A stretch of 63,962 nucleotides of DNA, counting the filler, from Candidatus Hydrogenedentota bacterium (GTDB taxonomy: Bacteria; JBFMHD01), in assembly GCA_040752395.1 (NCBI GenBank). It is 10 parts of 10 records of this genome, joined end to end, with 100 filler letters (N's around TTAATTAATTAA, not from the genome) between each part and the next. Parts side by side here need not be neighbours in the genome. Positions count along the whole stretch, not along the records: positions 50,159 to 54,960 come from JBFMHD010000214.1; 9 more parts are not named here. The stretch is one strand, 5' to 3'. The notes under the pieces are model-generated. The model saw only the letters and a list, made by a program, of their open reading frames with translations. It did not search any database and was not told the origin of the DNA. Below, piece by piece: positions 98 to 59,867 of the stretch (positions are counted from its first letter, which is position 1; each line of letters opens with the position of its first letter). The position numbers and the translations under genes were made by a program.

Positions 98-1612
98 TTA
101 TTCCCACTCGATTGATGCTGGTGGTTTTGTTGAGACATCGTAAAGTATCCTGTTAATGCCTTTGACATTATTCAATATTTCTTTAGAAATACGATTAAGA
201 ATATCAAGTGGTATCCTGGACCAGTCAGCGGTCATACCATCAGAGCTATCAACACATCGTAAAGATAATGCATATTCATACGAGCGTTCATCACCTTTTA
301 TACCAACAGTTTTACAATCTAATAATACACATAGCGCCTGCCAGATTTTATCATACCATCCCGTTTCTTTAAGAAGCCTGACAAAAATATAATCAGCTTC
401 GCGCAGTATCTTTAATTTATCTTCTGTGATGCAGCCAAGGATACGGACAGCGAGTCCTGGTCCTGGGAATGGATGTCTTTTTAAGATAGTATCAGGTATA
501 TTTAGTTCTTTACCTAATTTTCTGACCTCATCTTTGAAAAGTTCGCATAATGGTTCGATAACTCGTCCCTCGCTTTTGAGTTTTAAAATCTTATCAACCC
601 TGTTATGATGAGTTTTAATCCGCGAAGCCACTGAGCCACTTGTTGCACTCTCAATAACATCAGGATAGAGTGTTCCCTGGGCTAATACTTCAATTTCGCC
701 TGCCACTTCAAAAAACAGATCAAAAAAGGTATTACCAATGATTTCTCTTTTTTCTTCGGGTTCCTGGACATTCTTGAGATTTTTAATAAATCTACTACTA
801 TAATTAAATGTCTTAATCTCTATACCAAGGAGCTTAAAATTCTCTATAACCTCTATTTTCTCATTTTTACGTAATAATCCGGTATCAATAAATACCGGTA
901 TCACCCTGACTCCACTCTTTCTGAGTAATACACAAAGAACCGTAGAATCCACCCCACCTGATACTGCACAGATTACTTTTCTACCTCTGACTTTATCCTG
1001 TATCTCTTTTTGCAGTTCACTTACATAATCGGCCATATTGAATTGTTTCAAGTTGGCTTGTAAAGATAGAAAATTTTTTAATATGGTGCTACCGTGTTCT
1101 GTATGAGAGACCTCAGGATGAAACTGGATACCATAAATATTCTCTTCGAATTTTATAGCTGCAGGAATACCTTTTTCATTAACAGCGAGCAGATAACCAT
1201 TCCCACCTATTCTTACAATAGAATCAGAATGACTCATCCAGACATTTAAATTTTCAGGAACATTATTAAAAATTTTATTTCTATATCTAATTTGTATTCT
1301 CGAAGGTCCATACTCTTTTATTTCTTCACTCCTTACGATGCCACCATACTTCACATTGAGTAATTGCATACCATAACAGATTCCAAGTATCGGGATATTC
1401 AATTTTTTAAAAAGTTTTAAATCTATATCCAGTGCGTCTTTATCAGAAACACTTTTGGGTCCGCCTGAAAGTATCACAGCAGAAACACTATTTAAAGTAT
1501 TAATATCATCAGGTTGATAAAGTTTGACAAAATAACCGAGTTCACGGACCCGCCTGACTATAAGTTGTGAATATTGAGAACCATAATCTATCACAGCGAT
1601 TTGTGCTTCCAT
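98..1612 (-). CDS. guaA: GMP synthase (glutamine-hydrolysing)
   Basis: DYGSQY, GICYGMQ, QFHPEV, SGGVDS, QGTLYPDVIES, HPFPGPGLAVR, KPPASIEWE motifs. Confidence 0.98.
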   Translation of the reverse strand: MEAQIAVIDYGSQYSQLIVRRVRELGYFVKLYQPDDINTLNSVSAVILSGGPKSVSDKDALDIDLKLFKKLNIPILGICYGMQLLNVKYGGIVRSEEIKEYGPSRIQIRYRNKIFNNVPENLNVWMSHSDSIVRIGGNGYLLAVNEKGIPAAIKFEENIYGIQFHPEVSHTEHGSTILKNFLSLQANLKQFNMADYVSELQKEIQDKVRGRKVICAVSGGVDSTVLCVLLRKSGVRVIPVFIDTGLLRKNEKIEVIENFKLLGIEIKTFNYSSRFIKNLKNVQEPEEKREIIGNTFFDLFFEVAGEIEVLAQGTLYPDVIESATSGSVASRIKTHHNRVDKILKLKSEGRVIEPLCELFKDEVRKLGKELNIPDTILKRHPFPGPGLAVRILGCITEDKLKILREADYIFVRLLKETGWYDKIWQALCVLLDCKTVGIKGDERSYEYALSLRCVDSSDGMTADWSRIPLDILNRISKEILNNVKGINRILYDVSTKPPASIEWE

Positions 1613-1613
1613 A

Positions 1614-3077
1614 TTATTCCTGCCATCCTGTATAATTTAGAGGGTCTTCAGTTATAATAACATCGTGTGGATGACTTTCTTTAAGACCTGCTTTAGTCAC
1701 TTTTATAAATTTTGCTTTTTCTTTTAGTTCTTTAATATTTTTAGCGCCGATATATCCCATCCCTGCTTTAACGCCACCCATTAATTGAAAAATGTTAGCA
1801 CTGAGACTGCCTTTAAAAGGGACTCTTCCCTCAATACCTTCAGGCACAAGTTTGCCTGATGAGTTTTGACTGTATCTATCAGATGAACCTTTTTTCATCG
1901 AGGCTACTGAGCCCATACCACGATACTCTTTAAAAGTTCTTCCTTGAAAGATAATCGTCTTTCCCGGACTCTCTTCGGTACCTGCAAAAAGTGAACCTAT
2001 CATTACAGAGGAAGCTCCACAGGCAAGCGCCTTTAATATATCTCCAGAGTATCTGATACCGCCGTCAGCTATAAAAGGGATCTCTCTTTTATTGCATATT
2101 TTTGCAGCGTTCATAATCGAGGTCAATTGGGGCACTCCAACCCCTGAAATTACTCTCGTTGTGCAAATCGAACCAGGTCCTAAACCGACTTTTATGCCAG
2201 AAGCACCTGCTTCTATTAAAGCAAGACAACCCTCTTCTGTTACAACATTACCTGCTATAGTAGGTACATTTTTAAATTCTTCTTTTAATATTCTAAGTTT
2301 CTCAATAACTATTCTGGTATGTGCTGTTGCTGCATCAATAACCAGACAATCACACCCGCTCTTAATAAGATTTTCTGCTCTTTCTATACAATCTTCACCA
2401 ACACCTAAAGCGCCTCCGACCCTCAATCTACCATCACTATCCTTACAGGCTAACGGATACATCTCACTCTTTTCTATATCTTTAACAGTAATCAATCCCT
2501 TTAAGACGCTGTTTTCGTCAACAAGCGGCAACTTTTCTATCCTGTTTTTATAAAGAATCTCTTTTGCTTCTTTCATAGTTATAGTAGATTTAGCAGTAAC
2601 CAATTTATCTTTTCCTGTCATAACATCTTTTATCTTAATATTATTATCCTCTACAAACCTGATATCTCTTCTTGTAATAATGCCTACAAGGATGTCATTT
2701 TCGCATACAACAGGAAAACCCGATATCTGTTTTTCAGCCATTATTCTCTTTAGTTCGCCAATAGAGAGATCAGGTGTAACAGTAACAGGGTCAGAAATTA
2801 TAGTACTTTCTGATCGTTTCACATTTTCGATAAACTTGCTCTGTTCTTTTATAGAACAATTTCTATGAATAACACCTATCCCACCCTCACGTGCTAAAGC
2901 TATCGCAAGTTTATCTTCAGTAACAGTATCCATAGCAGCAGAGACCACAGGGATATTCATTTTTATTTCAGTAGTAAGATTAGTTGATAAATCTATCTCT
3001 GAGGGTAAAATCTCACTGTACTGGGGTATAATCATTACATCATCAAAACTTAAACCTTCACTGATATCCATTAGCAT
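1614..3077 (-). CDS. guaB: IMP dehydrogenase
   Basis: SAAMDTVTE, CBS pair, GPGSICTTR catalytic loop, YRGMGS, ESHPHD; adjacent to guaA. Confidence 0.98.
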   Translation of the reverse strand: MLMDISEGLSFDDVMIIPQYSEILPSEIDLSTNLTTEIKMNIPVVSAAMDTVTEDKLAIALAREGGIGVIHRNCSIKEQSKFIENVKRSESTIISDPVTVTPDLSIGELKRIMAEKQISGFPVVCENDILVGIITRRDIRFVEDNNIKIKDVMTGKDKLVTAKSTITMKEAKEILYKNRIEKLPLVDENSVLKGLITVKDIEKSEMYPLACKDSDGRLRVGGALGVGEDCIERAENLIKSGCDCLVIDAATAHTRIVIEKLRILKEEFKNVPTIAGNVVTEEGCLALIEAGASGIKVGLGPGSICTTRVISGVGVPQLTSIMNAAKICNKREIPFIADGGIRYSGDILKALACGASSVMIGSLFAGTEESPGKTIIFQGRTFKEYRGMGSVASMKKGSSDRYSQNSSGKLVPEGIEGRVPFKGSLSANIFQLMGGVKAGMGYIGAKNIKELKEKAKFIKVTKAGLKESHPHDVIITEDPLNYTGWQE

Positions 3078-3084
3078 CTCCTTC

Positions 3085-3352
3085 TATGAAAAGAAGCAAG
3101 AAGCAAGATAACGGAAGAAGTGAGAAGTATCAGGACAGACTTCAGATTGCAGACCACAGGCTACAGGCTACGGACCACAGCCGGCTGGAGCCAAAAGCCC
3201 AAAGCCAGCTGAAAAGTCTTGAGTCTTGAGTCTTGAGTCTCGAGTCCTGTTTTGACTCACGACTCTTTTCATATCATTTTTAGTTTTTCATCCTTTGTGC
3301 CTTTGTGCCTTTACCTCCTGACTCTCGACTCTTTGACTTCATAAACTGATTT
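3085..3352. repeat. Mosaic heptamer/palindrome repeat copy
   Basis: AAGAAGC, GGCTACA and GAGTCTT tandem units; CAGCCGGCTG palindrome at 3178-3187; near-identical to 4757-4955. Confidence 0.9.
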
Positions 3353-3939
3353 CATATCATCTTCTTTGTTCCTGGCCGTTCTGCAGGTATCCCCTGCTTG
3401 CATAAAGGGCACTCATCTTGATTATATACAGGAAAATTCAGTTCTATTATTGATTCTATCTTATATTCACCGAGATACTTTTTACCTGTTCTATTGACAA
3501 TCGTAAATATCCCGGCAATAATGCCTTTATTCTGAATAACTATATCTTTTAGTTCGTCAATTGTGCCGCCAGTTGTCATTACATCCTCAACTAATAAAAT
3601 CCGTTCATCATTTTTTATAGTAAACCCACGTTTCAGGACCATTTTATTGTTGTTATCTCTTTCTGCAAATATAGCCTTGCAATCAAATAATGCGCCGAGT
3701 TCCTGTCCTACGGGGATACCGCCGATTGCAGCTGATAGAACAGTATCTATTTTAATTCTATTCTGTAATTCAAAAGCTTTATCAAAAAGAAGCGAGATCA
3801 ATCGCCTGGGATATTGTGCAAGCAAAGCAACCTGAACATAATTTGCGCTATGTTTACCACTTGCAAGTATAAAATGGCCTTCAAGTAAAGCACCGCATCC
3901 TTTAAATATCTCTAATATCTTATCATTTGATTGCATCAT
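3352..3939 (-). CDS. pyrE: Orotate phosphoribosyltransferase
   Basis: GHFILASGKHS and PRPP-binding LLVEDVMTTGG motifs; overlaps pyrF. Confidence 0.95.
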   Translation of the reverse strand: MMQSNDKILEIFKGCGALLEGHFILASGKHSANYVQVALLAQYPRRLISLLFDKAFELQNRIKIDTVLSAAIGGIPVGQELGALFDCKAIFAERDNNNKMVLKRGFTIKNDERILLVEDVMTTGGTIDELKDIVIQNKGIIAGIFTIVNRTGKKYLGEYKIESIIELNFPVYNQDECPLCKQGIPAERPGTKKMI

Positions 3940-4708
3940 TAATTAACTCCCTATATTTTTTCGCTCTCTGTTTAAAACTTAATTCATCATCACTAAATAA
4001 TATACTTCGCGAAACATTTATAACCACAGGGCTCTCCATTTTTTTTATCAATTTAGATACTGGTTTTAGTTCACCGGCCTGGCTGCCGATCCCTGGCACA
4101 AGTAAAGGGACGTCAGGTATCTTTTTTATTAATTCTTGATTTATATTCGTTGCACCGATAACAAGCCCTATACCTGTTTTAGAATTCTCTAATAATCGCA
4201 GCATCTCAATCACATAATCAAATACTCTCCTATCACTTTTTACCTTATTACTTACTTTCAACATCTGTATATCTCTCGCACTACGATTTGAGGTGATCCC
4301 AAGTAAGTAAACCCCTTTACCTTCATAATTTAAAAAAGGTTCTATTGAATCTCGGCCAAGATATGGATTTAAAGTTACAGCATCTACATTTAATCTTTCA
4401 AAATAAGCTTTAGCATAATATCTCTGTGTTTGTGGGATATCACCTCTTTTAACATCGAGTATCACAGGGATATCTTTTGGTATCTCTTTTATAAGCTGGT
4501 ATAATATCTCATAGCCAGCGATACCAAGTGCTTCATAATAAGCGATATTAGGTTTATAACAGGCGGCAAATTCATTGGTTTGTGCTACAACTTTAATTAA
4601 AAACTTTAAAATATCACCCTTTATTAATTCTTCTCTTGGGTCAAGTCCGACACATAAATGAGAATTAATATTTTTTATTCTCAAACTCAATCTCTCATCG
4701 AATCGCAT
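3923..4708 (-). CDS. pyrF: Orotidine-5'-phosphate decarboxylase
   Basis: LCVGLDP, YKPNIAYYE, DVKRGDI, LVPGIGSQ, NVSRSI motifs. Confidence 0.95.
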   Translation of the reverse strand: MRFDERLSLRIKNINSHLCVGLDPREELIKGDILKFLIKVVAQTNEFAACYKPNIAYYEALGIAGYEILYQLIKEIPKDIPVILDVKRGDIPQTQRYYAKAYFERLNVDAVTLNPYLGRDSIEPFLNYEGKGVYLLGITSNRSARDIQMLKVSNKVKSDRRVFDYVIEMLRLLENSKTGIGLVIGATNINQELIKKIPDVPLLVPGIGSQAGELKPVSKLIKKMESPVVINVSRSILFSDDELSFKQRAKKYRELINDAIK

Positions 4709-4713
4709 ATCAA

Positions 4714-4955
4714 CTCCTCTGAAAAACGCTGTAACTCTAATAATTCGGGGTACAGGCTACGGGCTACGGACTACAGCCGGCTGGAGCCAAAAGCCCAAAG
4801 CCTGCTGAAAAGTCTTGAGTCTCGAGTCCTGTTTTGACTCACGACTTGCGACTTGCGACTCACGACTCTTTTCATATCATTTTTAGTTTTTCATCCTTTG
4901 TGCCTTTGTGCCTTTCCCTCCTGACTCTCGACTCTTTGACTTCATAAACTGATTT
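4714..4955. repeat. Mosaic repeat copy; its end supplies the pyrF Shine-Dalgarno
   Basis: CTCCTCTGAAAAAC...TGTAACTCTAATAAT end; CAGCCGGCTG at 4774-4783; runs to the contig end. Confidence 0.9.
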
Positions 4956-5055
4956 NNNNNNNNNNNNNNNNNNNNNNNNNNNNNNNNNNNNNNNNNNNNT
5001 TAATTAATTAANNNNNNNNNNNNNNNNNNNNNNNNNNNNNNNNNNNNNNNNNNNN
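4956..5055. other. Artificial contig linker; also at 9989-10088, 30123-30222, 35156-35255, 40169-40268, 45120-45219, 50059-50158, 54961-55060, 59767-59866
   Basis: Identical 100-nt N44-TTAATTAATTAA-N44 blocks with stops in all six frames. Confidence 0.98.
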
Positions 5056-5057
5056 AT

Positions 5058-8000
5058 ATAATAAGGCGTAGTGATGGTTCGTATGTGCGAGGGATATCGC
5101 CATCAGTTAATGGAGATACAGTATATTGTGATTGGAACAACTGGCCGGACCCTGTTGTGAATTTAAGTGCGCAAGCAACTGGAGAGGAGACAGTAGTAAT
5201 AACATTTAGTCAGCCACAGGATGCAGATGATAGAAAGGATCATTACAAGTATCGGATATATCGGAGTACTGATCCCATGGATACAGGTTATGAATTAATA
5301 ACGAGTTTAGATACAAGTATAACTACCTATACAGATAGCGGGTTAATAACAGGTGTTACATATTATTATCGAGTGACAACAGTAGATACAGGTGATAGCA
5401 AGCTTGAGGGCAGGTATAGCGCAAGAGCAGGAGCACGACCCGATGTACCGGTTAATGTGATTTTTAATGTTGATGCAGGATTATTAGACCCGGATACAGC
5501 TGTGATGCTTGGAGGCAACTCACCTTTATCAGGCTGGGGGAATAGTGCAAGTATTATGACAGATACAGATGGTGACGGGATATGGACAGTAACAATAGAG
5601 AATATAATAAATGGTAGTAATTTAGAATACAAATATTTATTTGATGGTCAGTATTACGAGGAATTAGCAGGTGGCGGGAATCGAACAATAACAGTAGATA
5701 CGAACATACCTGGGGCGATGCTTATTTATAACAACTGGGGCGAGACACCCTCTGCACCAGTTCTAACGTATAATGTTGATAGTGGTGTGATAATACTTTA
5801 CTTTACAGTTCCTGACTATGATGTGAATAGGTTCAAGGTTTATAGAAAACCAAGCTCCGGGAATTACTCATTAATCTCAGATATAAGTTATACTTATGCT
5901 CTTAAAGTTGGTAATCAAGTTACATATACAGATACGAATGTAATTGTTGGAGAGACTTATACTTATGTAGTAAAAGCTGTTGATAGTACAGATTCATTGC
6001 TTGAGAGTGATAGTTCTAATACAATCACAACAACGCCTGGTTATTTAGGTGATGTTACCTTCAGGGTATGTGTGGGTACTAATCCTGATATAATAAAAGT
6101 TAATATGGCAGGTAATTTTAACAACTGGTCTGTGTTCCCTGATGAGATGACACGAGATACTGCTAATCCTGATTACTGGTATATAACAAAGCAATTAGTA
6201 GTTGGTAAACTATATTATTATAAATATGTGATTAACAATTCTATATGGGAATCGAGTTTTGCTACTACTTCAGGGAACAGGGAGGTTTATATCAGTGTTT
6301 TAAATATAAACAACTGGGAAGATACACCAGATGCACCAGAGATAGATGTTTACTCAGAGAGCGGCAGTGTACAAATTATTATAGATAATTATCCAATGGA
6401 TTGTAAAGAGTTCAGGATTTATCGGACTGATAGCGGATTAATAGCGATTACTTCTGAGACCACTTATTATGATTATAATGTTAATGTTAATGATACGTAT
6501 TATTATTATGTTGTCACAGTTGATTATGGAGGGTTATGGAGTGATAGCAGTAATATAGATTCAGCTGTTCCCGGGATAATGATTCATTTATATGTTTATC
6601 TTGATATCAAGGATGCGTTAAACAGTGGTTTAATAACAGATGAGAATGGCATCTCATTTGTTGGGCTTGAATATCCATTGGTAACAGATACTGATAAATC
6701 GAGGATGACAAAGGTTGAGCCAGGGGTTTATCTTTTCGATACCTGGATAATCTCGAATTCATTAATTAGATATATTTTTGTTGCTAATCCACTAACGAGT
6801 AATCAAAAAGTAGAAGAATACAAATATGAGTTCTCATATTATGCTCCATCAGCAAGTAGTGTATATGTCGCTGGTACATTTAACAACTGGGATATACAAG
6901 CGTTCCCGTTATCAAATGATGGCAGTGGTACCTGGGTCGGATATATATATTTATCACCGGGGTATTATGAATATAAATTTATAATAAATGGTAACTGGGA
7001 GGGTGGTAATAATAGGTCGTTTACAATAGAGAATAGAAAAGCAGTAATAGGAAACATATTGGGTCTTGGTATTTATAAAATCTATAATACCTGGGGAGAA
7101 TCCTATGATATATATCCAGGTGCTCCGGATGGTATAAGTTATTATATATCAGATTCAACAGTAGCGATTGGTTGGGTTCAAAGTAAAGAGTTTGATGTTG
7201 CTGGTTATTCAATCTACCGCTCAACTGATGCTACGATTACAGAAGGTGATTTAGTAGCCTGGGTAATAAATGATACTTATTATTTTGAGACTGGTTTATT
7301 ACCTGGCCAGACTTATTATTATGCATTAAAAGCAATAGATTTTGCGACGAATTCTGGTGAGTTATCAGAGGTACAGAAGATTCAGCTTATAGATACAGGA
7401 GCGAGCTGGCGGAAATACATTCTTGGTGATTTACTTACTATAACGGTTGGAGAAAAAGATGTTCCGCGTATCTGGCGGTTTCGTGGTGTGAGATGGGGAT
7501 TAATAAATGAGTTAGCTTTGTTTAAGGAAGAATTTAATACCGTAAAGAATAAGATAGATAATGCGAACAAAGAGATAATTTATTCAAGTATGTTAAAATT
7601 TATCTCTGGTCTTTCTGCTTCTGATACGCTTAACCCTATATGCTGGGTCGAGTTTTATGATACTGCGATGGATGTAATCCATAATTTTAACGATTCACTG
7701 GTTATAGTATTTTCAGCTCCAAAATCGTTACCTTCTGATGTAAACCCGGCTTCACTTGCACCTTATGTATTGAATGAGAATTCTGCAAGATGGGAGAGGC
7801 TTGATGGCTATTCGACTACAACATCAGGGACAATAACTTTAACAAGGTATCAGAATTCGATATATATAATAGTAGGTGTTCCTGGTGCGTTAAATGATCT
7901 CTCACAGCTTATTGTATTTCCAAACCCGTTTTACAAGCACAAATCGGTCTCAGGTTATGTGCATTTTATCAACATCCCGCCGGATTTTGAATACATAAAG

Positions 8001-8189
8001 ATTTTCAATGTAGCAGGCGAGCTTGTATCTTCGAGGTACAGGCAGGATGCGAACCCGCAGGGTAATAACATAGAGCTTCGCTGGGATATAAAGAACGATG
8101 CAGGTCGAGAGGTAGCAAGCGGCATGTATATTTATTATATAAAAACAGCGCGTGATAAACGGATAGGTAAGATCGGGATAATAAAATGA
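5058..8189 (+). CDS. Large secreted multi-module protein (5'-partial): FN3 repeats, CBM20/CBM48-like starch/glycogen-binding modules, C-terminal FlgD-Ig/T9SS-like sorting domain
   Basis: Frame open to the contig edge; YYYRVTTVD-type FN3 motifs; VYVAGTFNNW...GYYEYKFIING CBM48-like motif; C-terminal FPNPF...IFNVAGELV...WDIKNDAGREVASGMYIY...KIGIIK. Confidence 0.8.
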   Translation: MIRRSDGSYVRGISPSVNGDTVYCDWNNWPDPVVNLSAQATGEETVVITFSQPQDADDRKDHYKYRIYRSTDPMDTGYELITSLDTSITTYTDSGLITGVTYYYRVTTVDTGDSKLEGRYSARAGARPDVPVNVIFNVDAGLLDPDTAVMLGGNSPLSGWGNSASIMTDTDGDGIWTVTIENIINGSNLEYKYLFDGQYYEELAGGGNRTITVDTNIPGAMLIYNNWGETPSAPVLTYNVDSGVIILYFTVPDYDVNRFKVYRKPSSGNYSLISDISYTYALKVGNQVTYTDTNVIVGETYTYVVKAVDSTDSLLESDSSNTITTTPGYLGDVTFRVCVGTNPDIIKVNMAGNFNNWSVFPDEMTRDTANPDYWYITKQLVVGKLYYYKYVINNSIWESSFATTSGNREVYISVLNINNWEDTPDAPEIDVYSESGSVQIIIDNYPMDCKEFRIYRTDSGLIAITSETTYYDYNVNVNDTYYYYVVTVDYGGLWSDSSNIDSAVPGIMIHLYVYLDIKDALNSGLITDENGISFVGLEYPLVTDTDKSRMTKVEPGVYLFDTWIISNSLIRYIFVANPLTSNQKVEEYKYEFSYYAPSASSVYVAGTFNNWDIQAFPLSNDGSGTWVGYIYLSPGYYEYKFIINGNWEGGNNRSFTIENRKAVIGNILGLGIYKIYNTWGESYDIYPGAPDGISYYISDSTVAIGWVQSKEFDVAGYSIYRSTDATITEGDLVAWVINDTYYFETGLLPGQTYYYALKAIDFATNSGELSEVQKIQLIDTGASWRKYILGDLLTITVGEKDVPRIWRFRGVRWGLINELALFKEEFNTVKNKIDNANKEIIYSSMLKFISGLSASDTLNPICWVEFYDTAMDVIHNFNDSLVIVFSAPKSLPSDVNPASLAPYVLNENSARWERLDGYSTTTSGTITLTRYQNSIYIIVGVPGALNDLSQLIVFPNPFYKHKSVSGYVHFINIPPDFEYIKIFNVAGELVSSRYRQDANPQGNNIELRWDIKNDAGREVASGMYIYYIKTARDKRIGKIGIIK

Positions 8190-9934
8190 GAAGCAAGATA
8201 ACGGAAAAGCAAGATAACGAAAAAGGCAAGATGCAAGAAAAGAAAAACAGAAGACAAGAAGTAAGAAAAATTAGAAGAAAAAGGGAAGGAATTAATGTCA
8301 CTTTTTCTTGTTTCTTGCTTCTTGCTTCTTGCTTCTTGCTTCTTGCTCCTCTTCATGCAAGTAGTGGTAATCGAGGCACGTCAGCTTGTAATTTCTTAAA
8401 GCTCGGGTTTGGGGCTCGACCATCTGGTATGGGTGAAGCATTCTCTGCGGTCGATGGCGATATCAATACTGTATACTGGAACCCGGCCGGGTTATATTCG
8501 CTTGATAAATTTGATGTATCGTTTATGTACCTCGATTGGTTCGCCAGGATTGATTATCATATGCTATCGTTTGCAATGCCGATTAAAAATAAGATGTCAT
8601 TTGGTACCACTGTAGGGCTACTTGATTATGGTGAAACAGAGAAGACTATTGAGGCGACAGGTGGCGGTTATGGCGGAACAGTCGGGACATATTCTGCGTA
8701 TGATAGAGAATTAAAGCTCTCGTTCGCTTATTTATTTGATTTTGACAACTGGATTTTGCCTGTGGGACTGAATTTAAAATATTTATATCAAAAAATAGAT
8801 TTAGCTTCAGCATCAGGTGGCGCAGTGGATTTCGGGTTACAGTTTAGACTGAAGAAATGGGAGCATTTCTCATTTGGGTTAGTGTTACAGAATATAGGGA
8901 CAATGAGCAGTTTTGATTTAGAAAAAGACCCGTTACCCTTTAATGTAAAAGGTGGCATACTCTTCAGTGGATTTAGAGATAAATTACATCTTGTATCAGA
9001 TGTAAACATACCACGAGATAACACTGCTTATATTAATTTAGGTGCTGAGTATTATTTTCTTGAGAGAGCAGATGATTTGAATTTTGCATTAAGAGCAGGT
9101 TATTCAAGTCTTAAAAACAGGACTGACAGAGAAGGGTTTACTCTCGGCGCAGGGTTTAGTTACAAAGATTTAGAGATAGATTATGCTTTTCTACCGTTCG
9201 AGTTACTCGGGAACACTCACAGAGTCTCGATTAATTATCAGTTTGGGCCATCACGTGGCAAGAAAATAGAAGAACTAAAGGCTAAACTCGCATTAAAAGA
9301 GGCAGAAGCAGAAGAAATAAAAGAGAAAATCATAAAAAAGGAACCAAAAGAGAAACCAGAACATCTTATTACTTTTGTAACTGATGATGGTGAGGCTATT
9401 TTTGTATTCCAGGATAGGGGATTTAAGAAGGTTGGTGTAGCAGGTGATTTTAATAACTGGGATTATACAAAGAACATTATGAAACTCGAGAGTGATTTTA
9501 AATGGAGGACAAAAATAAAATTAGAAGAGGGTAGATACAAGTACAAATTTGTTGTGAATGATTTGTACTGGATTGAGGATAAAAATAATAAAAACAGGGA
9601 ATCAGATGGTATAGGTGGCTATCACTCTGTGATAGAGTACTATAAAGAGAAAGGACCGGCCTCTCCGATTATTGAGGTTACGGAGTCTACTGCGATTGCC
9701 CCGCCAGCTCCAGAACCAAAGCCCATCGGAGAGGCCCCGGCCTCTAAGAAAAAAACAAAAAAAGATTTCCTTGATTCTGCACTCGAAAATATTAATAATT
9801 GCAAGTATGAAGAGGCATTGCGTGATATAATCGAGGTTATGAAGATGGACCCGATGGATGAAGATGCGTTATCAATGTCCATTCGCATAAGAAAAGTGAT
9901 CAGAATAATGAAAGAGACAAAAGAGAAGAGATAG
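8186..9934 (+). CDS. PorV/PorQ-family outer-membrane beta-barrel fused to a CBM48-like domain and a C-terminal TPR-like helix pair
   Basis: FLKLGFGARPSGMGEAF, YWNPAGL, IDYAF...LGNTHRVS PorV-family motifs; VAGDFNNW...GRYKYKFVVN; ATGA overlap with the upstream gene. Confidence 0.82.
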   Translation: MRSKITEKQDNEKGKMQEKKNRRQEVRKIRRKREGINVTFSCFLLLASCFLLLAPLHASSGNRGTSACNFLKLGFGARPSGMGEAFSAVDGDINTVYWNPAGLYSLDKFDVSFMYLDWFARIDYHMLSFAMPIKNKMSFGTTVGLLDYGETEKTIEATGGGYGGTVGTYSAYDRELKLSFAYLFDFDNWILPVGLNLKYLYQKIDLASASGGAVDFGLQFRLKKWEHFSFGLVLQNIGTMSSFDLEKDPLPFNVKGGILFSGFRDKLHLVSDVNIPRDNTAYINLGAEYYFLERADDLNFALRAGYSSLKNRTDREGFTLGAGFSYKDLEIDYAFLPFELLGNTHRVSINYQFGPSRGKKIEELKAKLALKEAEAEEIKEKIIKKEPKEKPEHLITFVTDDGEAIFVFQDRGFKKVGVAGDFNNWDYTKNIMKLESDFKWRTKIKLEEGRYKYKFVVNDLYWIEDKNNKNRESDGIGGYHSVIEYYKEKGPASPIIEVTESTAIAPPAPEPKPIGEAPASKKKTKKDFLDSALENINNCKYEEALRDIIEVMKMDPMDEDALSMSIRIRKVIRIMKETKEKR

Positions 9935-9988: not shown

Positions 9989-10088
9989 NNNNNNNNNNNN
10001 NNNNNNNNNNNNNNNNNNNNNNNNNNNNNNNNTTAATTAATTAANNNNNNNNNNNNNNNNNNNNNNNNNNNNNNNNNNNNNNNNNNNN

Positions 10089-30122: not shown

Positions 30123-30222
30123 NNNNNNNNNNNNNNNNNNNNNNNNNNNNNNNNNNNNNNNNNNNNTTAATTAATTAANNNNNNNNNNNNNNNNNNNNNN
30201 NNNNNNNNNNNNNNNNNNNNNN

Positions 30223-35155: not shown

Positions 35156-35256
35156 NNNNNNNNNNNNNNNNNNNNNNNNNNNNNNNNNNNNNNNNNNNNT
35201 TAATTAATTAANNNNNNNNNNNNNNNNNNNNNNNNNNNNNNNNNNNNNNNNNNNNG

Positions 35257-40057: not shown

Positions 40058-40425
40058 CAAAGATTAAAAGATTAAAAGATTGAAAGATTGAAAGATTCAA
40101 AGGAAAGGCACAGAGGCACAAAGGCACAAAGGCAGAAAGTTAAATTAAAAATTCAAAATTAGGAGTTANNNNNNNNNNNNNNNNNNNNNNNNNNNNNNNN
40201 NNNNNNNNNNNNTTAATTAATTAANNNNNNNNNNNNNNNNNNNNNNNNNNNNNNNNNNNNNNNNNNNNAAACAAACATCTAGTTTTTCATACCTTGTGTA
40301 GAGCGCAAAAACGCAATAACCCAATAACCCAATAACACAATAACCCAATAGTGTAGAGCACAAACCGCGCTCATGACTACTCCGCTAAAAAAAAAAAGTG
40401 GGAACTAAGAAGTGAGAAGTCAGAT
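40058..40425. repeat. Repeat modules at both contig ends (AAGATTGA, GGCACAAA, ACCCAATA arrays; GTGTAGAGCGCAA motif)
   Basis: Tandem 8-mers on both sides of the linker. Confidence 0.8.
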
Positions 40426-45014: not shown

Positions 45015-45375
45015 AACATTAGGTAGTTTACCATCACTTGTGATGAGTTCTCTTCTCTAATGCGATTTATGAGAAAAGTTTTTAAACATTTTTGTATTGT
45101 TTTTGCTGAAAAATGGGAGNNNNNNNNNNNNNNNNNNNNNNNNNNNNNNNNNNNNNNNNNNNNTTAATTAATTAANNNNNNNNNNNNNNNNNNNNNNNNN
45201 NNNNNNNNNNNNNNNNNNNTTAGCCAGAATATGATATTTATTCTTCTCATAGACTAATCCTGCTGTAACCCCCCGGTTATAGGTAGAAAACAAGTAAAAA
45301 ATAGAAAGTTAAAAGCTAAAAGTGAGAGAGATGTTTTTCTTCATTGTGGTCGGCCAAAGCAAGGATATATCGGCA

Positions 45376-49983: not shown

Positions 49984-50159
49984 AGCGTGTCTCCTATCTT
50001 ACCTCTGCGATCTCTTTCTGCGATTCCCTGAACCTTATATCCTCGTCAAGCGGGAACANNNNNNNNNNNNNNNNNNNNNNNNNNNNNNNNNNNNNNNNNN
50101 NNTTAATTAATTAANNNNNNNNNNNNNNNNNNNNNNNNNNNNNNNNNNNNNNNNNNNNG

Positions 50160-50231
50160 AAAGAAAAGGTCGAGGATGTTTTTAACATCGGAGAGAACCT
50201 TGCTAAACGTGTAGAACGGAGCCTCAAATGA
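50160..50231 (+). CDS. 3' end of an upstream gene (KEKVEDVFNIGENLAKRVERSLK)
   Basis: Open frame from the contig edge to TGA 50229-31, overlapping ATG 50228. Confidence 0.55.
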   Translation, partial: KEKVEDVFNIGENLAKRVERSLK

Positions 50232-51666
50232 CACGCTCAAGCTGTTATTGGGTTGTTGGGTTATTGGGTTATTGGGTGCTGATATTTTATACAGTTATGA
50301 TGTAACTATAGGCAAAGTATATTTCAGTGTTGGTGGTGATAGCTCAGGATCAAATTTTTCATTTAACAGCGAACTGAATCAAGCCCTGATAACTTTTATA
50401 ACCAGCGCTACCAAATCTGTCCGACTCGCTAATTTTAATTTTACTGATGATGACCCGGCAGGTAGCTCGATCCTCGATGCTTTAATAGAAAGAAAAAATG
50501 CAGGCGTTACTGTAAAAGTTGTGCTTGATAAATATAGTTCACAGGGTAGCGGAGCCTCTGTTTATAATGCGCTCCTGAATGCAGGCATCTCTGTGAAATT
50601 AGACAATGAATCAGGTGACCCGGAAATGCATAATAAATTTATTGTCATTGATTCTGATTCTGGTGATACAGCAAACGGTAAAGTCGCACTCGGATCAGCT
50701 AATTTTAATGACCCGCAGTTCTCTGAAGATAATAATAATTTTATTATAGTTGAACGATGTCCGGACCTTGCGTTTAACTACACTAAAGAGTTCGACCAGA
50801 TGTTTGCCGGCACTTTTCACACTGCTAAATCTAATGTGAAGATCGCTTCAAGTTTCTCGGTTGATACCGGCGCCATAACTATTGAAAACTATTTTAGCCC
50901 ATACGATAATAATATTGATAAAATAATCGATAAAGTGGATAACTCTATAACCCGGATTTATCTTGCTTGTTATACCTTTGGCTCGAATGATTTAGCCAAT
51001 GCACTCATTAATGCTGGCTCAACAAGAAATGTAAAGGTTAAGATTGTATTTGATAAGAGCCAGACTTTTGATAACCCATCTATGCTACAATTTTATAATG
51101 ACCTATTGGGTAGAACAAATATAGAGATATTTCTTTCAACTAAAAACCCTTACGGCATTATGCATCATAAGTTCATTATAGTAGATAATACAGTGATTAC
51201 AGGCTCAGCAAATTTTACTGTATCTGCTAATGAACAAAATGATGAGAATGATGTTTTTATTACAGGTGATAATCAATTATTGAGTTACTTTATCCTTGAG
51301 TTTGCTAAAATTTTTTCAGGGTCAGTTGATACTTCAGGCATAACAGTCCCTTCAGCTGAAGCACCGCTTCAACAAACTACATCAAGCAAACCAGAAAATT
51401 GTCCCAATCCATTTATCGCAGGCTCTGGTAATAATGTTACCATAAGAACAAAAGACAGAGAGATATTACACAAAGCTGAGATATTTGATATGCGTGGTAG
51501 AAAAATTAAAGAGATTGTTTTACCATTAAATACCACTGATAGAGATATAAAGTGGGATGGACGCGATAATAATGGGAATTATATGGCTAATGGTGTTTAT
51601 TTATATAAATTATATGTAAAAAATGTTAGAGAACCTTTGCAGGGGAAATTAACACTGATAAAATGA
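50228..51666 (+). CDS. Secreted phospholipase D/Nuc-family protein with FlgD-Ig/T9SS-like C-terminal domain; frameshifted within an 8-mer array near the start
   Basis: Two HKD motifs (MHNKFIVID...GSANF, MHHKFIIVD...GSANF); CPNPF...IFDMRGRKI...WDGRDNNG...NGVYLY...KLTLIK. Confidence 0.82.
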
Positions 51667-52991
51667 GAAATAAGAAGCAAGAAACAAGAAGCAAGAAACA
51701 AGAGAAAAATCACAAGCAATGTTTTAAAAGAAATGGTATCTATTTTTTAATTATTATATTATTACTTCTAAACAACGAGGTATTTGCAAATAAAACCACA
51801 GGTGCTGCGTTCCTTACAATCTCACCATCAAGCGCAGGTATTGGAAGGGGCAGCGGCACAGCTTACGGTACCAGCGTCTTTGATATCTTTTATAACCCCG
51901 CTTTAGTTAATAATCTATCTAATCATTCGTTTGGGTTTACACACATAGAATTACTCTCCAATGCGAATTATGAGTATCTTGGTTATGTCGCAGAACTTGA
52001 TTATGGCTTCAGAATAGGTGCTGATTTTACTTTTGTTAACAATTCTGACATAAAGAGAGATGCTACGGGTCGTGAGGCCGGCAAGATTCATAATCGTGAT
52101 TATGCCGGAGGATTGATATTAGGCAAATATTTAAATGATTATGTCTCAATCGGTACGAAACTGAAATATATTAAACAGCAGCTCGATACTTATAAAGATA
52201 ATACCTGGGGACTGGATGCAGGTCTTGTATTCAGAGATATAATTATCGATAATTTTAATATCGGTTTATCTGTGACTAATCTTGGTGGCGAGATTAAGTT
52301 TATACGGCTTGCTGACGAGTTACCTTTAAGTTATAATGCGGGCATTAATTATAATGTATTTGAGAATCGCCTCAGATTTTTTGCCGATGTAAATAAACCT
52401 GACGAAGAAGAGGTTGAGGGAGGTGTCGGTTTAGAGTATCAGCCTGTTTCGTTTCTTGTATTCCGAACAGGATTCAAAATTTATGAAGATATTAAAACAG
52501 AAAACTCATTCAGAGCAGGACTGGGTATCCAGCATAAAAATTGGTTCTTTGATTATGCCTATGAATATTTTAGCGATTTAGGTACAACACACAGGTTATC
52601 GTATGGTGTTACATTCGGTAAAAAGTTCGAGGTTGAGAAGATTGAAAAGACCCGTGAAACTAAATTATATAAGAAAAGCTATTTAATAGAGAGTGTTAAT
52701 AATCTTTCTTTTGATACTGAGATAGACTGGTTAAAAGACGGTATTCGAGAGATAGTTAAACATAACCTTAAAAAGTATAACTGGGGTTTTACACTTCTGG
52801 AAACAGCTGATATATTCATCAATATTGATTATAAAAAAGTCAGAGATGATAACATAATTATACAGCTAAATTATTATACCGCAGAAGACCCGAGATATAA
52901 GCTATTTGAATTCGAAGTGAATTTAAAACATCTATTTGATGATATGGGATCCGGCATAAACAAATTTGTTGACTTAGTTTCTAATCAATGA
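51663..52991 (+). CDS. PorV/PorQ-family beta-barrel with extra C-terminal domain
   Basis: GAAFLTISPS, FYNPA, FDYAY...DLGTTHRLS; ATGA coupling to the PLD gene. Confidence 0.82.
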   Translation: MRNKKQETRSKKQEKNHKQCFKRNGIYFLIIILLLLNNEVFANKTTGAAFLTISPSSAGIGRGSGTAYGTSVFDIFYNPALVNNLSNHSFGFTHIELLSNANYEYLGYVAELDYGFRIGADFTFVNNSDIKRDATGREAGKIHNRDYAGGLILGKYLNDYVSIGTKLKYIKQQLDTYKDNTWGLDAGLVFRDIIIDNFNIGLSVTNLGGEIKFIRLADELPLSYNAGINYNVFENRLRFFADVNKPDEEEVEGGVGLEYQPVSFLVFRTGFKIYEDIKTENSFRAGLGIQHKNWFFDYAYEYFSDLGTTHRLSYGVTFGKKFEVEKIEKTRETKLYKKSYLIESVNNLSFDTEIDWLKDGIREIVKHNLKKYNWGFTLLETADIFINIDYKKVRDDNIIIQLNYYTAEDPRYKLFEFEVNLKHLFDDMGSGINKFVDLVSNQ

Positions 52992-53004
52992 ATATTTACT
53001 CAGT

Positions 53005-53154
53005 GATACTTCTCACTTCTTACTTTCAGAGGCACAGAGGCACAACGTATGAAAAACTAAAGATGATATGTTGGCTTTTGGCTCCAGCCGGCTGTAGTCC
53101 GTAGCCTGTAGCCTGTAGCCCGAATTATTAGGGTCGCGAAGTTTTTCCAAGGAG
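53005..53154. repeat. Mosaic repeat copy ending in an AAGGAG SD
   Basis: CAGCCGGCTG at 53085-53094; TGTAGCC units. Confidence 0.85.
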
Positions 53155-53160
53155 ATGACA

Positions 53161-53643
53161 ATGAGAAACCTTATTAAACTATTAATAAAAAACGCAAAGA
53201 TTGATACTAAAGATTTAGCAAAGAGATTACACCTTAGAGAGACTGAGGTCAAGGCAGAGCTTAAAAAATTACAAAAAGATAAAGTTATTCTGGGATTCAA
53301 GCCTGTTTTAGACAGAGAAAAAGTTTATAAAGACGACTATGTCTCTTCTGCGATAGAGGTAAAAGTCACGCCACAACGCGATGTAGGGTTTGATGCCATA
53401 GCCCAAAGAATTGCAAAATTTTCTGAGGTTAGATCACTATATCTTGTATCAGGTGCTTATGATTTACTTGTTATAGTAGAAGGCAGAAATCTGAAAGAAG
53501 TCTCCACTTTTGTTGCAACAAAATTAGCTACACTCGACGAGGTTCAGAGCACCTCAACTCACTTTATGCTTAAAACTTATAAAGAACAGGGGGTCGCGTT
53601 TGAATCAGAGATTAAACCCCAGAGATTAAAGGTCTCGTTATGA
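53161..53643 (+). CDS. Lrp/AsnC family transcriptional regulator
   Basis: N-terminal HTH; IEVKVTPQRDVGFDAIA, LVSGAYDL, THFMLKTYK. Confidence 0.9.
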   Translation: MRNLIKLLIKNAKIDTKDLAKRLHLRETEVKAELKKLQKDKVILGFKPVLDREKVYKDDYVSSAIEVKVTPQRDVGFDAIAQRIAKFSEVRSLYLVSGAYDLLVIVEGRNLKEVSTFVATKLATLDEVQSTSTHFMLKTYKEQGVAFESEIKPQRLKVSL

Positions 53644-54794
53644 AAGAACGGCTCTCTAAGGTTGTTCGTGAAATAAAACCAAGTGGTATAAGAAAATTCT
53701 TTGATCTTGTTATGAATACACCTGATATAGTTTCACTTGGTGTTGGTGAACCGGATTTCTCAACCCCATGGGGTATTTCAGAATACGCAATACATAAAAT
53801 TGAAAAAGGGTTCACAAGCTATACATCCAATTATGGATTAACAGACTTAAGAGATGCTATCTGTGAATATCTTAATAATAGATTCCACTGTAGTTATAAA
53901 AGAGAAAATGTTCTTGTCACTGTTGGTTCAAGTGAAGCGCTGGATATCGTATTACGTGGATTAATAAATCCAGGAGATGAGATTATCATTCTTGAACCAT
54001 GTTTTGTCTCATACTACCCATTAATCAAGCTTGCTTATGGCACTCCTGTGGTAGTACCACTTGACCCACAGAGAAAATTTCATCCCGACTTTAAAGCCCT
54101 GAATAATAAAATTACTAAAAAAACCAAAGCTATTATAGTGAGTTATCCTAATAATCCTACAGGCTCGTCTTTAAAAAAAGAAGAGCTTGAAAAATTGATA
54201 GATATAGCTATTAAGAACGATTTATATATAATCTCTGATGAGTTGTATGCAGAGCTTACATACGATGGAGAATATATATCGTTTGGCTCTTTTAAAAAGA
54301 TAAAAAGCAGATTAATGCTTATTTCGGGTTTATCAAAAGCATGGGCTATGACCGGCTGGCGTATTGGTTATGTATGTGCTCCTTCTGAAATTATTGAGAT
54401 GATAGTAAAAATTCATCAGTATAGTATTATGTGTGCGCCTGTTATGGCCCAGTTTGCTGCAATAGAAGCTTTAAAAAACGGAAACAGAGACAAGGATGAA
54501 ATGGTTGAAGAGTATAACACAAGAAGAAAATTTATCTATAAAGGACTAAAAGATATCGGTTTTGACGTAAATCTTCCAGAAGGCGCGTTTTATATATTCC
54601 CGAGTATTAAAGAAACAGGGATGAAGTCTGAAAGATTTTGTTTGAAGCTTTTAGCTAAAGAGAAGGTTGCGGTTGTACCCGGGACAGCGTTCGGAGATTA
54701 CGGTGAAGGGTATATAAGATGTTCTTATGCGAGTTCTTTTGAAGAGATAGAGATAGCTCTTGACCATATCAATAAATTTTATAAGAATCTCTGA
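53640..54794 (+). CDS. Class I/II PLP-dependent aminotransferase
   Basis: LGVGEPDF, YPNNPTG, SDELY, SKAWAMTGWRIG. Confidence 0.93.
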   Translation: MKERLSKVVREIKPSGIRKFFDLVMNTPDIVSLGVGEPDFSTPWGISEYAIHKIEKGFTSYTSNYGLTDLRDAICEYLNNRFHCSYKRENVLVTVGSSEALDIVLRGLINPGDEIIILEPCFVSYYPLIKLAYGTPVVVPLDPQRKFHPDFKALNNKITKKTKAIIVSYPNNPTGSSLKKEELEKLIDIAIKNDLYIISDELYAELTYDGEYISFGSFKKIKSRLMLISGLSKAWAMTGWRIGYVCAPSEIIEMIVKIHQYSIMCAPVMAQFAAIEALKNGNRDKDEMVEEYNTRRKFIYKGLKDIGFDVNLPEGAFYIFPSIKETGMKSERFCLKLLAKEKVAVVPGTAFGDYGEGYIRCSYASSFEEIEIALDHINKFYKNL

Positions 54795-55131
54795 TACTTC
54801 TTCAGGCTTCGGGCTCCAGCCGGCTGTAGTCCGTAGCCTGTAGCCTGTAGCCAACATATCATCCTTAGTTTTTCATACTTTGTGCCTCTGTGCCTCTTGC
54901 TTCTTGCTTCTTGCCTCTTGCTTCTACTTGATATCATCAGAGTTACAATGTTTTTCAGAGNNNNNNNNNNNNNNNNNNNNNNNNNNNNNNNNNNNNNNNN
55001 NNNNTTAATTAATTAANNNNNNNNNNNNNNNNNNNNNNNNNNNNNNNNNNNNNNNNNNNNCACATGCTACTTGCCTCTTGCTTCTTGCTTCTACTTGATA
55101 TCATTAGAGTTACAATGTTTTTCAGAGGAGA
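54792..55131. repeat. Mosaic repeat copies at both contig ends
   Basis: CAGCCGGCTG at 54817-54826; CTTCTTG arrays; GAGTTACAATGTTTTTCAGAG end twice. Confidence 0.88.
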
Positions 55132-59745: not shown

Positions 59746-59867
59746 TCCGCTGTTGAGATCAACTCCNNNNNNNNNNNNNNNNNNNNNNNNNNNNNNNNNN
59801 NNNNNNNNNNTTAATTAATTAANNNNNNNNNNNNNNNNNNNNNNNNNNNNNNNNNNNNNNNNNNNNT

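Follow-up and report, generated by a model that had tools for sequence, protein, structure and literature searches.

The PLD gene and its octamer array

The gene studied here encodes a predicted secreted enzyme of the PLD superfamily in an uncultured Candidatus Hydrogenedentota bacterium. It lies near one end of contig C129, which fills positions 50159–54960 (4802 nt) of the window analysed, a 63,962-base stretch joined from contigs of a 349-contig, 2.84-Mb assembly; positions are those of the window unless a contig is named. The last 23 codons and TGA of an upstream outer-membrane protein gene (50160–50231, plus strand), as read from the sequence, contain a GGAG Shine–Dalgarno (SD) motif at 50218–50221. 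After a 6-nt spacer this is followed, on the same strand, by an ATG (50228–50230), which the TGA of the upstream frame (50229–50231) overlaps as ATGA. Eighteen nucleotides past this ATG, and before the residues that match the mature start of a homologue, begins an array of four 8-nt TrTTGGGT units (TATTGGGT, TGTTGGGT, TATTGGGT, TATTGGGT; 50246–50277, plus strand), which codes the hydrophobic core of the signal peptide. The locus lies 70–119 nt from the 5′ end of C129, with the array 88 bases in. With four units, the frame of the ATG comes to a dead end after 25 codons (MTRSSCYWVVGLLGYWVLIFYTVMM, then TAA at 50303–50305; 50228–50305, plus strand), while the open frame of the PLD-superfamily protein, 472 amino acids (aa) counted from a TTG, covers 50248–51666 on the plus strand. 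All of these start-site features (the SD-led ATG, the ATGA overlap, the early stop and the four units) had been reported in a first-pass annotation of the window and can be read directly in the sequence.

As the TTG lies 20 nt beyond the ATG (50248 − 50228), the loss of 8 nt or the gain of 16 nt puts the ATG in the PLD frame. The annotation had proposed just this, that one unit fewer or two units more would join the two, and both the arithmetic and the six-unit allele described below bear it out. Repeats of TATTGGGT are free of stops in all three sense frames, which read Y, W, V, I, G and L, and contain stops in the antisense frames; because every sense frame is hydrophobic and open, any in-frame unit count keeps a usable hydrophobic core. 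TRF placed the repeat at 50244–50277 (period 8, 4.2 copies, score 61). A search with the 32-nt four-unit pattern, allowing at most two mismatches, gave three matches in the window against 0.00 expected from 100 shuffles; the other two fall in an intergenic block at 40311–40350 on the minus strand, in agreement with the earlier statement that the unit recurs in an intergenic family at about 40312–40350. Of the 63 occurrences of the TGTTGGGT variant in the genome, those in array context are all at the PLD locus (one on C129 and three on contig C336). A promoter and terminator scan of C129 gave counts no higher than those of shuffles. Rescue of the four-unit frame by programmed −1 frameshifting was set aside, no X XXY YYZ heptamer being found by eye in the 25 codons.

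Pfam analysis of the protein gave PLDc_2 in two stretches (E = 8.6e-43), the PLDc active-site motif (29.6 bits against a cut-off of 21.9) and a C-terminal FlgD_ig-type sorting-like domain (30.2 bits against a cut-off of 27); Por_Secre_tail had no match in the protein itself and is listed for a homologue, P0006. The nearest solved structures are the Nuc endonuclease 1byr (E = 3.8e-12), NucT (6ehi) and mitochondrial cardiolipin hydrolase. The protein is a possible cargo of type IX secretion, which would call for a C-terminal sorting domain together with an N-terminal Sec signal. Two PLDc_2 domains in one chain identify a Nuc-like member of the PLD (HKD) superfamily, and to judge from these matches the enzyme may be a nuclease instead of a lipase.

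Two alleles in one assembly

The last 231 nt of contig C336 (C336 10450–10680) were identical to C129 1–215 at every base except 16 extra nt in C336. The extra stretch consists of two further TGTTGGGT units, so that C336 has six (A,G,G,G,A,A) where C129 has A,G,A,A. Translation from the six-unit ATG stays in frame and runs on into the enzyme (MTRSSCYWVVGLLGCWVIGLLGADILYS... / MTRSSCYWVVGLLGCWVIGLLGADILYSYDVTIGKVYFS... / MTRSSCYWVVGLLGCWVIGLLGADILYSYDVTIGKVYFSVGG...), whereas the four-unit coding frame halts at its early stop. One assembly carries both an in-frame (ON) and an out-of-frame (OFF) form of the PLD locus, and the assembly breaks exactly at this polymorphism. The co-existence of the two forms is assembly-level evidence, which does not tell one clone from several; at that level it answers the unit-count test proposed in the annotation (three or six units ON, four or five OFF). 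No third allele was present among the assembly contigs, where the flanking 16-mers occur on C336 and C129 only. Because TGTTGGGT is arrayed at this locus alone, the two alleles differ by a local change, and a mis-join with other TATTGGGT-type blocks does not account for it.

The geometry of the contig ends bears on which allele is the main one. Contig ends overlap by 141–287 nt genome-wide. Of the gap-free overlaps of 140 nt or more, 65 contain substitutions; the outermost mismatch was exactly 126 nt from one contig end in 55 of these and from both ends in none. A k = 127 graph leaves this signature when it covers one allele in full and the other forms a dead-end branch. The final 127-mer specific to six units (start 10554) coincides with the end of C336, whereas C129 contains only 89 of the 111 possible 127-mers specific to four units and starts 22 nt short of a fully covered four-unit branch. 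The geometry therefore suggests that the main path, with full coverage, is the six-unit ON form, and that the four-unit OFF form is a minor variant with partial coverage. The annotation's description of the gene as being in the OFF phase thus holds for the contig in the window and not for the organism, in which the ON form is probably the main one.

The 65 overlaps contain 90 substitutions, 61 transitions and 29 transversions; the 77 that lie in long open reading frames (ORFs) include 32 synonymous changes and 36 at the third codon position, and 13 lie outside. Such dead-end variants are unlike random noise, and the sample contains real, closely related variants. Their resemblance to real variation supports a biological origin for the four-unit allele, and equally leaves room for two strains.

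Homology and composition were used to judge which start codon is real. Among 8000 candidates scored, 401 homologues of the PLD protein were found at E ≤ 0.001, of which the sole near one is P0002 (56% identity, 470 aa; the next best is 34% identical). P0002 begins MIRSFVLFILFLSVPGLVAG (leader MIRSFVLFILFLSV...), starting MIRS against MTRS in the ATG-started PLD form; in the mature part its NVGIGQVYFS aligns with DVTIGKVYFS onward, and it has an ordinary signal peptide of about 20 aa ahead of the point at which the PLD array ends. Judged by charge and hydropathy alone, a candidate Sec signal is found in the six-unit allele only, which has one Arg in its first six residues and then a run of 20 that includes no K, R, D, E, Q, N, H or P. 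In the TTG-started form there is no positive charge, the uncharged run is 11 residues long and, as the annotation had also stated, the TTG has no SD motif; the stretch upstream of it (CACGCTCAAGCTGTTA) is not purine-rich. The M-x-R-S start and normal signal peptide of P0002 favour the ATG, and on this comparison ATG 50228 is supported as the likely true start. The public protein collection lists a 472-aa product from TTG 50248, within the array (P0001); this public gene call is without a signal peptide, because the contig has the four-unit allele.

Neighbouring genes and repeat arrays across the genome

The ten contigs of the window (C122–C130 and C149) are separated by nine N44-TTAATTAATTAA-N44 linkers (4956–5055, 9989–10088, 30123–30222, 35156–35255, 40169–40268, 45120–45219, 50059–50158, 54961–55060 and 59767–59866), and genes that flank a linker are not genomic neighbours. 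Since the window is built of joined contigs, the SMC gene to the left of the linker before C129 is no true neighbour of the PLD gene. The real upstream gene is that of the outer-membrane protein, whose body lies on C336 (8981–10522, 513 aa; Pfam OMP_b-brl, UPF0164 and PorP_SprF, PorV-like) and whose stop overlaps the PLD ATG. It is preceded on C336 by a gene for a 2858-aa protein (382–8958), the C-terminus of which resembles, by eye, the sorting-type tail of the PLD protein. Downstream, a gene for a 442-aa protein (51663–52991, plus strand) has an ATG that overlaps the PLD stop (ATGA), and a 7-nt array (51666–51703, plus strand) codes its charged N-terminal region (MRNKKQETRSKKQEK...).

Three gene pairs share a layout: window 5085–8189/8186–9934, C336 382–8958/8981–10522 and window 50228–51666/51663–52991. 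In each, a sorting-tail gene (the tail recognized by eye in two of the three) is followed by a gene that opens with an ATGA overlap and encodes a PorV/UPF0164-like or otherwise unmatched protein, an arrangement that suggests cargo-plus-partner pairs with translational coupling. A further gene, C60 1–1510, has no Pfam match and belongs to a family that follows tail-bearing genes; in it a whole mosaic of AAAGATTC, ACAGGCT and TTCTTGC blocks is open in frame as a putative extension of about 58 residues before the hydrophobic core. Searches for relatives of the locus found kin at domain level only in 30 other genomes (best match 33% identical), and a scan of JGI metagenomes returned nine loci with best-segment identities of 27–37%.

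Variation in unit number was sought in overlapping contig ends. Dovetail pairs of 100 nt or more numbered 390, and 313 of them were dropped because one end lay in repeats. The remaining 77 pairs with unique ends comprised 60 with 1–4 substitutions, 4 identical pairs, 10 with other indels and 3 with indels of 14 or 16 nt. These last three are the PLD array, the spacer between ftsW and murG, and an indel that is not in an array. In the spacer, which runs from the stop of the ftsW-like gene to the ribosome-binding site of the murG-like gene, one of the overlapping 3′ ends of contigs C10 and C13 carries three AGAAGCA units and the other carries one, a second robust unit-count polymorphism, which lies outside coding sequence. 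Seven further long, probably allelic overlaps have whole-unit indels of 7, 8, 14 or 16 nt in intergenic mosaics. Among coding arrays, that of the PLD gene alone showed two states in contig overlaps.

Arrays of at least three copies number 1178 for heptamers and 344 for octamers in the genome. The unit AACCCAAT, which is TATTGGGT on the opposite strand, ranks fifth with 68 arrays, and octamer blocks of at least two units number 105, counting both PLD copies. The window contains an intergenic mosaic repeat whose octamer block, CAATAACC ×5.6, again TATTGGGT on the other strand, lies at 40306–40350 on the minus strand. Mosaics of this kind run in the order AAGGAGT-N4-ATGAGCGCGG(T/G)TTGCGCTCTACAC (consensus ...AAGGAGTCGTCATGAGCGCGGTTTGCGCTCTACAC), octamer block and then TTTTGCGCTCTACAC, and the PLD array has the same orientation relative to its downstream gene as the mosaic block. 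An SD-led ATG in the mosaic repeat opens a predicted mini-ORF through the octamer block (MSAGCALHYWVIGLL...; for example, window 40290–40395, minus strand). This mini-ORF has 65 dispersed copies with 2–8 units and three alternative stops depending on frame, and its lengths cluster at 23, 31 and 32 aa.

The possibility that the 5′ flank of the PLD gene is homologous to the mosaic module was considered and rejected, as profile search gave no similarity. A profile of 103 mosaic upstream flanks found 324 places in the genome and none on C129 or C336; compared directly with the 87-nt PLD flank, it gave only a 10-nt reverse-strand match (E = 0.11). The conserved modules that flank the mosaic octamer block on either side are absent at the PLD gene. 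The PLD array shares its unit and orientation with the mosaic family and differs from it in its private TGTTGGGT variant. The annotation's description of the array as derived from a mobile repeat is thus upheld for the unit, which is identical, and not for the flanks, which lack similarity to the conserved module; from the unit, descent from the mosaic family is plausible. A likeness at the protein level between MTRSSCYWVVGLLG and the mosaic mini-ORF MSAGCALHYWVIGLLG is suggestive only.

Coding arrays were surveyed genome-wide: 1522 arrays (1279 clusters) yielded 226 array/frame combinations that were fully open with at least 100 codons downstream. Of 312 combinations, 44 passed a leader heuristic that called for a start upstream of the array and in frame with it, no SD-led start beyond the array, a hydrophobic window of nine residues and a K or R ahead of this window; manual classification of the arrays arrived at about 20 genes with an N-terminal export signal coded by mosaic-type 7- or 8-nt units. 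Examples are the leaders MILKDSKIQRFSD-TCYFSLLTFLMILLTSYFLLLT-YLHA/EN and MQDNERSKITKDARGKKRQQ-ISCFLLLASCLLL-ITGC, the 442-aa gene after the PLD gene, and the window gene 8186–9934, in which (TTCTTGC)×6.1 (8305–8347, plus strand) supplies the signal peptide (...VTFSCFLLLASCFLLLAPLHA/SS) with its hydrophobic core, SCFLLLASCFLLLAPLHA, and is read in frame from an ATG overlapping the preceding stop. Of 20 such genes fetched, 15 had a Pfam match at E ≤ 0.001, 11 scored above the curated cut-off and all 20 were in frame. The matches include a SurA-like PPIase, PorV/UPF0164 barrels, a YfiO/BamD-like TPR lipoprotein, CBM20, CBM48 and CBM9, fn3, a Zn-dependent phospholipase C and an LTD/Big_1 giant. 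The SurA-like PPIase and the YfiO/BamD-like lipoprotein (C159 474–1472 and C341 5084–6118) have signal peptides coded by (TACTTCT)×9.7 and by (AGCAAGA)×5.0 ending in a lipobox-like LLITGC, and in such likely essential genes slippage frameshifts would be costly.

An automated screen for OFF genes returned 14 candidates from the 312 combinations, and on inspection the PLD gene alone stands. The candidate at 8305–8347 was rejected, being in frame from ATG 8186, and the rest were arrays in 5′ untranslated mosaics. The annotation had suggested a survey of other secreted genes for the same configuration as a check; about 20 other leaders are coded by arrays, and all are in frame.

A proposed frameshift switch and related systems

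We think it probable that the array is an opa-type switch, in which slipped-strand frameshifting sets the export signal of the PLD enzyme ON or OFF. In this model, the Sec signal that exports this Nuc-like enzyme of the PLD superfamily would be coded by tandem 8-bp units and, because 8 is not a multiple of 3, their number would set the frame of the SD-led ATG 50228, with 3, 6 and 9 units ON and 4, 5, 7 and 8 units OFF. The population would hold a six-unit ON allele (that of C336, probably the main one) and a four-unit OFF allele (that of C129), which yields only the 25-residue peptide. The most likely origin of these alleles is in vivo, through slipped-strand mispairing or through unequal exchange among units. 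The unit pattern indicates that six units could become four in one step, by the loss of two of the three private TGTTGGGT units; the reverse would not be reachable in one step, and a return to ON from four units would need the loss of one unit or the gain of two. As the downstream ATG overlaps the PLD stop, the OFF state may also lower translation of the 442-aa gene. The sequence, the frames, the two alleles and the N-terminus of the homologue are observed; the parts of this model that we infer are its in-vivo origin, its reversibility, its rate and its effect on export.

The locus shows the features expected of an opa-type switch: a repeat of non-3n unit length before the mature protein, the frame logic, co-existing alleles and a leader that tolerates changes in length. 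Several observations weigh against such a switch. The arrays are short (4–6 units), and the alleles differ by two units and not by one. Signals of SurA-like and YfiO/BamD-like proteins, which it would hardly be useful to switch off, are coded by similar arrays, so that an array in a leader need not be an evolved switch, and the other leaders coded by arrays, roughly 20 of them, are all in frame. The four-unit branch, with its incomplete set of allele-specific 127-mers, dead-ends in the assembly and may rest on few reads; given the closely related variants in the sample, the alleles could be fixed in two co-existing strains; and the genomes searched offer no close relative for comparison.

Some of the same observations would suit ordinary polymorphism, with the array an unstable by-product of repeat load and the four-unit allele a one-off loss-of-function deletion in a sub-lineage or co-existing strain, with no switching back at a useful rate. 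The micro-diversity of the sample, with the biological signature of its 90 substitutions, agrees with this, as do the array-coded leaders of likely essential genes, the intact frame of all remaining array-coded leaders and the finding of two alleles in one coding array alone. We nonetheless regard this account as unlikely, as the deletion takes exact whole units and leaves the array intact, such that one further unit lost would restore the frame; unit counts are labile across the genome; and the order of start codon, repeat hydrophobic in all frames and mature protein is the design of the known switchers opa and neuO. It is less likely still that the organism has the six-unit ON gene only and that the four-unit form is a library or assembly artefact, the product of amplification slippage or a few aberrant reads. 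The contig ends could be read in this way, with C129 starting short of a complete branch and C336 ending at its last allele-specific 127-mer, a dead-end geometry also seen in 55 of the 65 substitution overlaps. However, a clean loss of two units (2 × 8 nt) is no base-calling error, the branch covers at least 89 consecutive 127-mers of otherwise perfect sequence, and the other dead-end variants are, like real polymorphisms, rich in transitions (61:29), with 32 of 77 synonymous and 36 of 77 at the third position.

Expression of both alleles, with the four-unit form translated from TTG 50248 and its short N-terminus MGCWVIGLLGA still exporting the enzyme, is very improbable. The TTG-started 472-aa protein is the public entry P0001, and its first 11 residues are uncharged and hydrophobic; against this, the TTG has no preceding SD motif, the N-terminus that it would give has no positive charge, ribosomes from the SD-led ATG, 20 nt upstream, cross the TTG in a different frame, and both P0002 and the six-unit allele have M-x-R-S starts. 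An opa-type switch is thus the account that we prefer.

A wider reading is possible, though we hold it only tentatively: that mosaic unit arrays have been co-opted as ready-made export signals for about 20 envelope or secreted proteins, making repeat-driven contingency switches of much of the secretome of this deep-branching bacterium. A/G-rich blocks might then supply the charged n-region (KDSKIERFKDSKI, KKQEARSKKQE), and T-rich blocks could, just as speculatively, supply the hydrophobic core (SCFLLLA, LTSYFLL, YWVIGLLG). If so, the PLD gene would be the first array-coded leader caught in both states, and much of the secretome would depend on frameshift-prone starts, since the period is 7 or 8 nt in all of these leaders; translation starts, complete export signals and an inbuilt mutational switch would then all come from a dispersed repeat. 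The evidence points in two directions: array-coded leaders are common in this genome, but those of likely essential envelope proteins are unlikely to be evolved switches.

Leader-peptide frameshift switches are textbook knowledge for a few host-adapted pathogens; here, a single assembly of an uncultured bacterium shows a switch-like leader in both states, and that bacterium has no near relative among the genomes searched. The closest parallel is Neisseria opa, in which, according to passages in two sources, CTCTT coding repeats occupy leader-peptide codons, with 6, 9 or 12 units in frame (PMC3960869; bioRxiv 10.1101/2020.09.16.300947). As described there, opa resembles the PLD gene in having a non-3n repeat between start codon and mature protein that itself codes a hydrophobic leader, in being in frame at counts divisible by 3, and in slipped-strand mispairing as the cause, which for PLD is proposed. 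The PLD array differs in its 8-nt unit (against 5 nt), its count of only 4–6 units, its secreted PLD/Nuc-like product in place of an adhesin, the type-IX-like C-terminal domain of that product and a unit common to a dispersed intergenic repeat family. The hosts differ as well, that of PLD being uncultured and without near relatives in the genomes searched.

In the neuO O-acetyltransferase gene of Escherichia coli K1 (phage CUS-3), AAGACTC heptamers in the 5′ coding region number 3–53, full-length protein is made only at counts divisible by 3, and populations are mixed ON and OFF, as part of one account has it (PMC13001214). On that description neuO shares with PLD a long-unit 5′ coding repeat (7 nt against 8 nt), the 3n rule and ON and OFF counts found together; it differs in that its repeats code part of a cytoplasmic enzyme, whereas the shorter PLD array codes an export signal. 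The heptamer given there for neuO switching (PMC13001214) is also the third commonest array unit in the present genome (141 arrays), which is probably a coincidence. In Gardnerella nanH3, an excerpted description places a poly-C tract beside the signal-peptide codons (bioRxiv 10.1101/2020.09.16.300947). Unlike the PLD array, this tract is a homopolymer that follows the signal peptide and does not code it; in both, so far as that description goes, repeat length uncouples a secreted hydrolase from its signal peptide, the start chosen by automated annotation leaves out the signal peptide, and assemblies are interrupted at the repeat.

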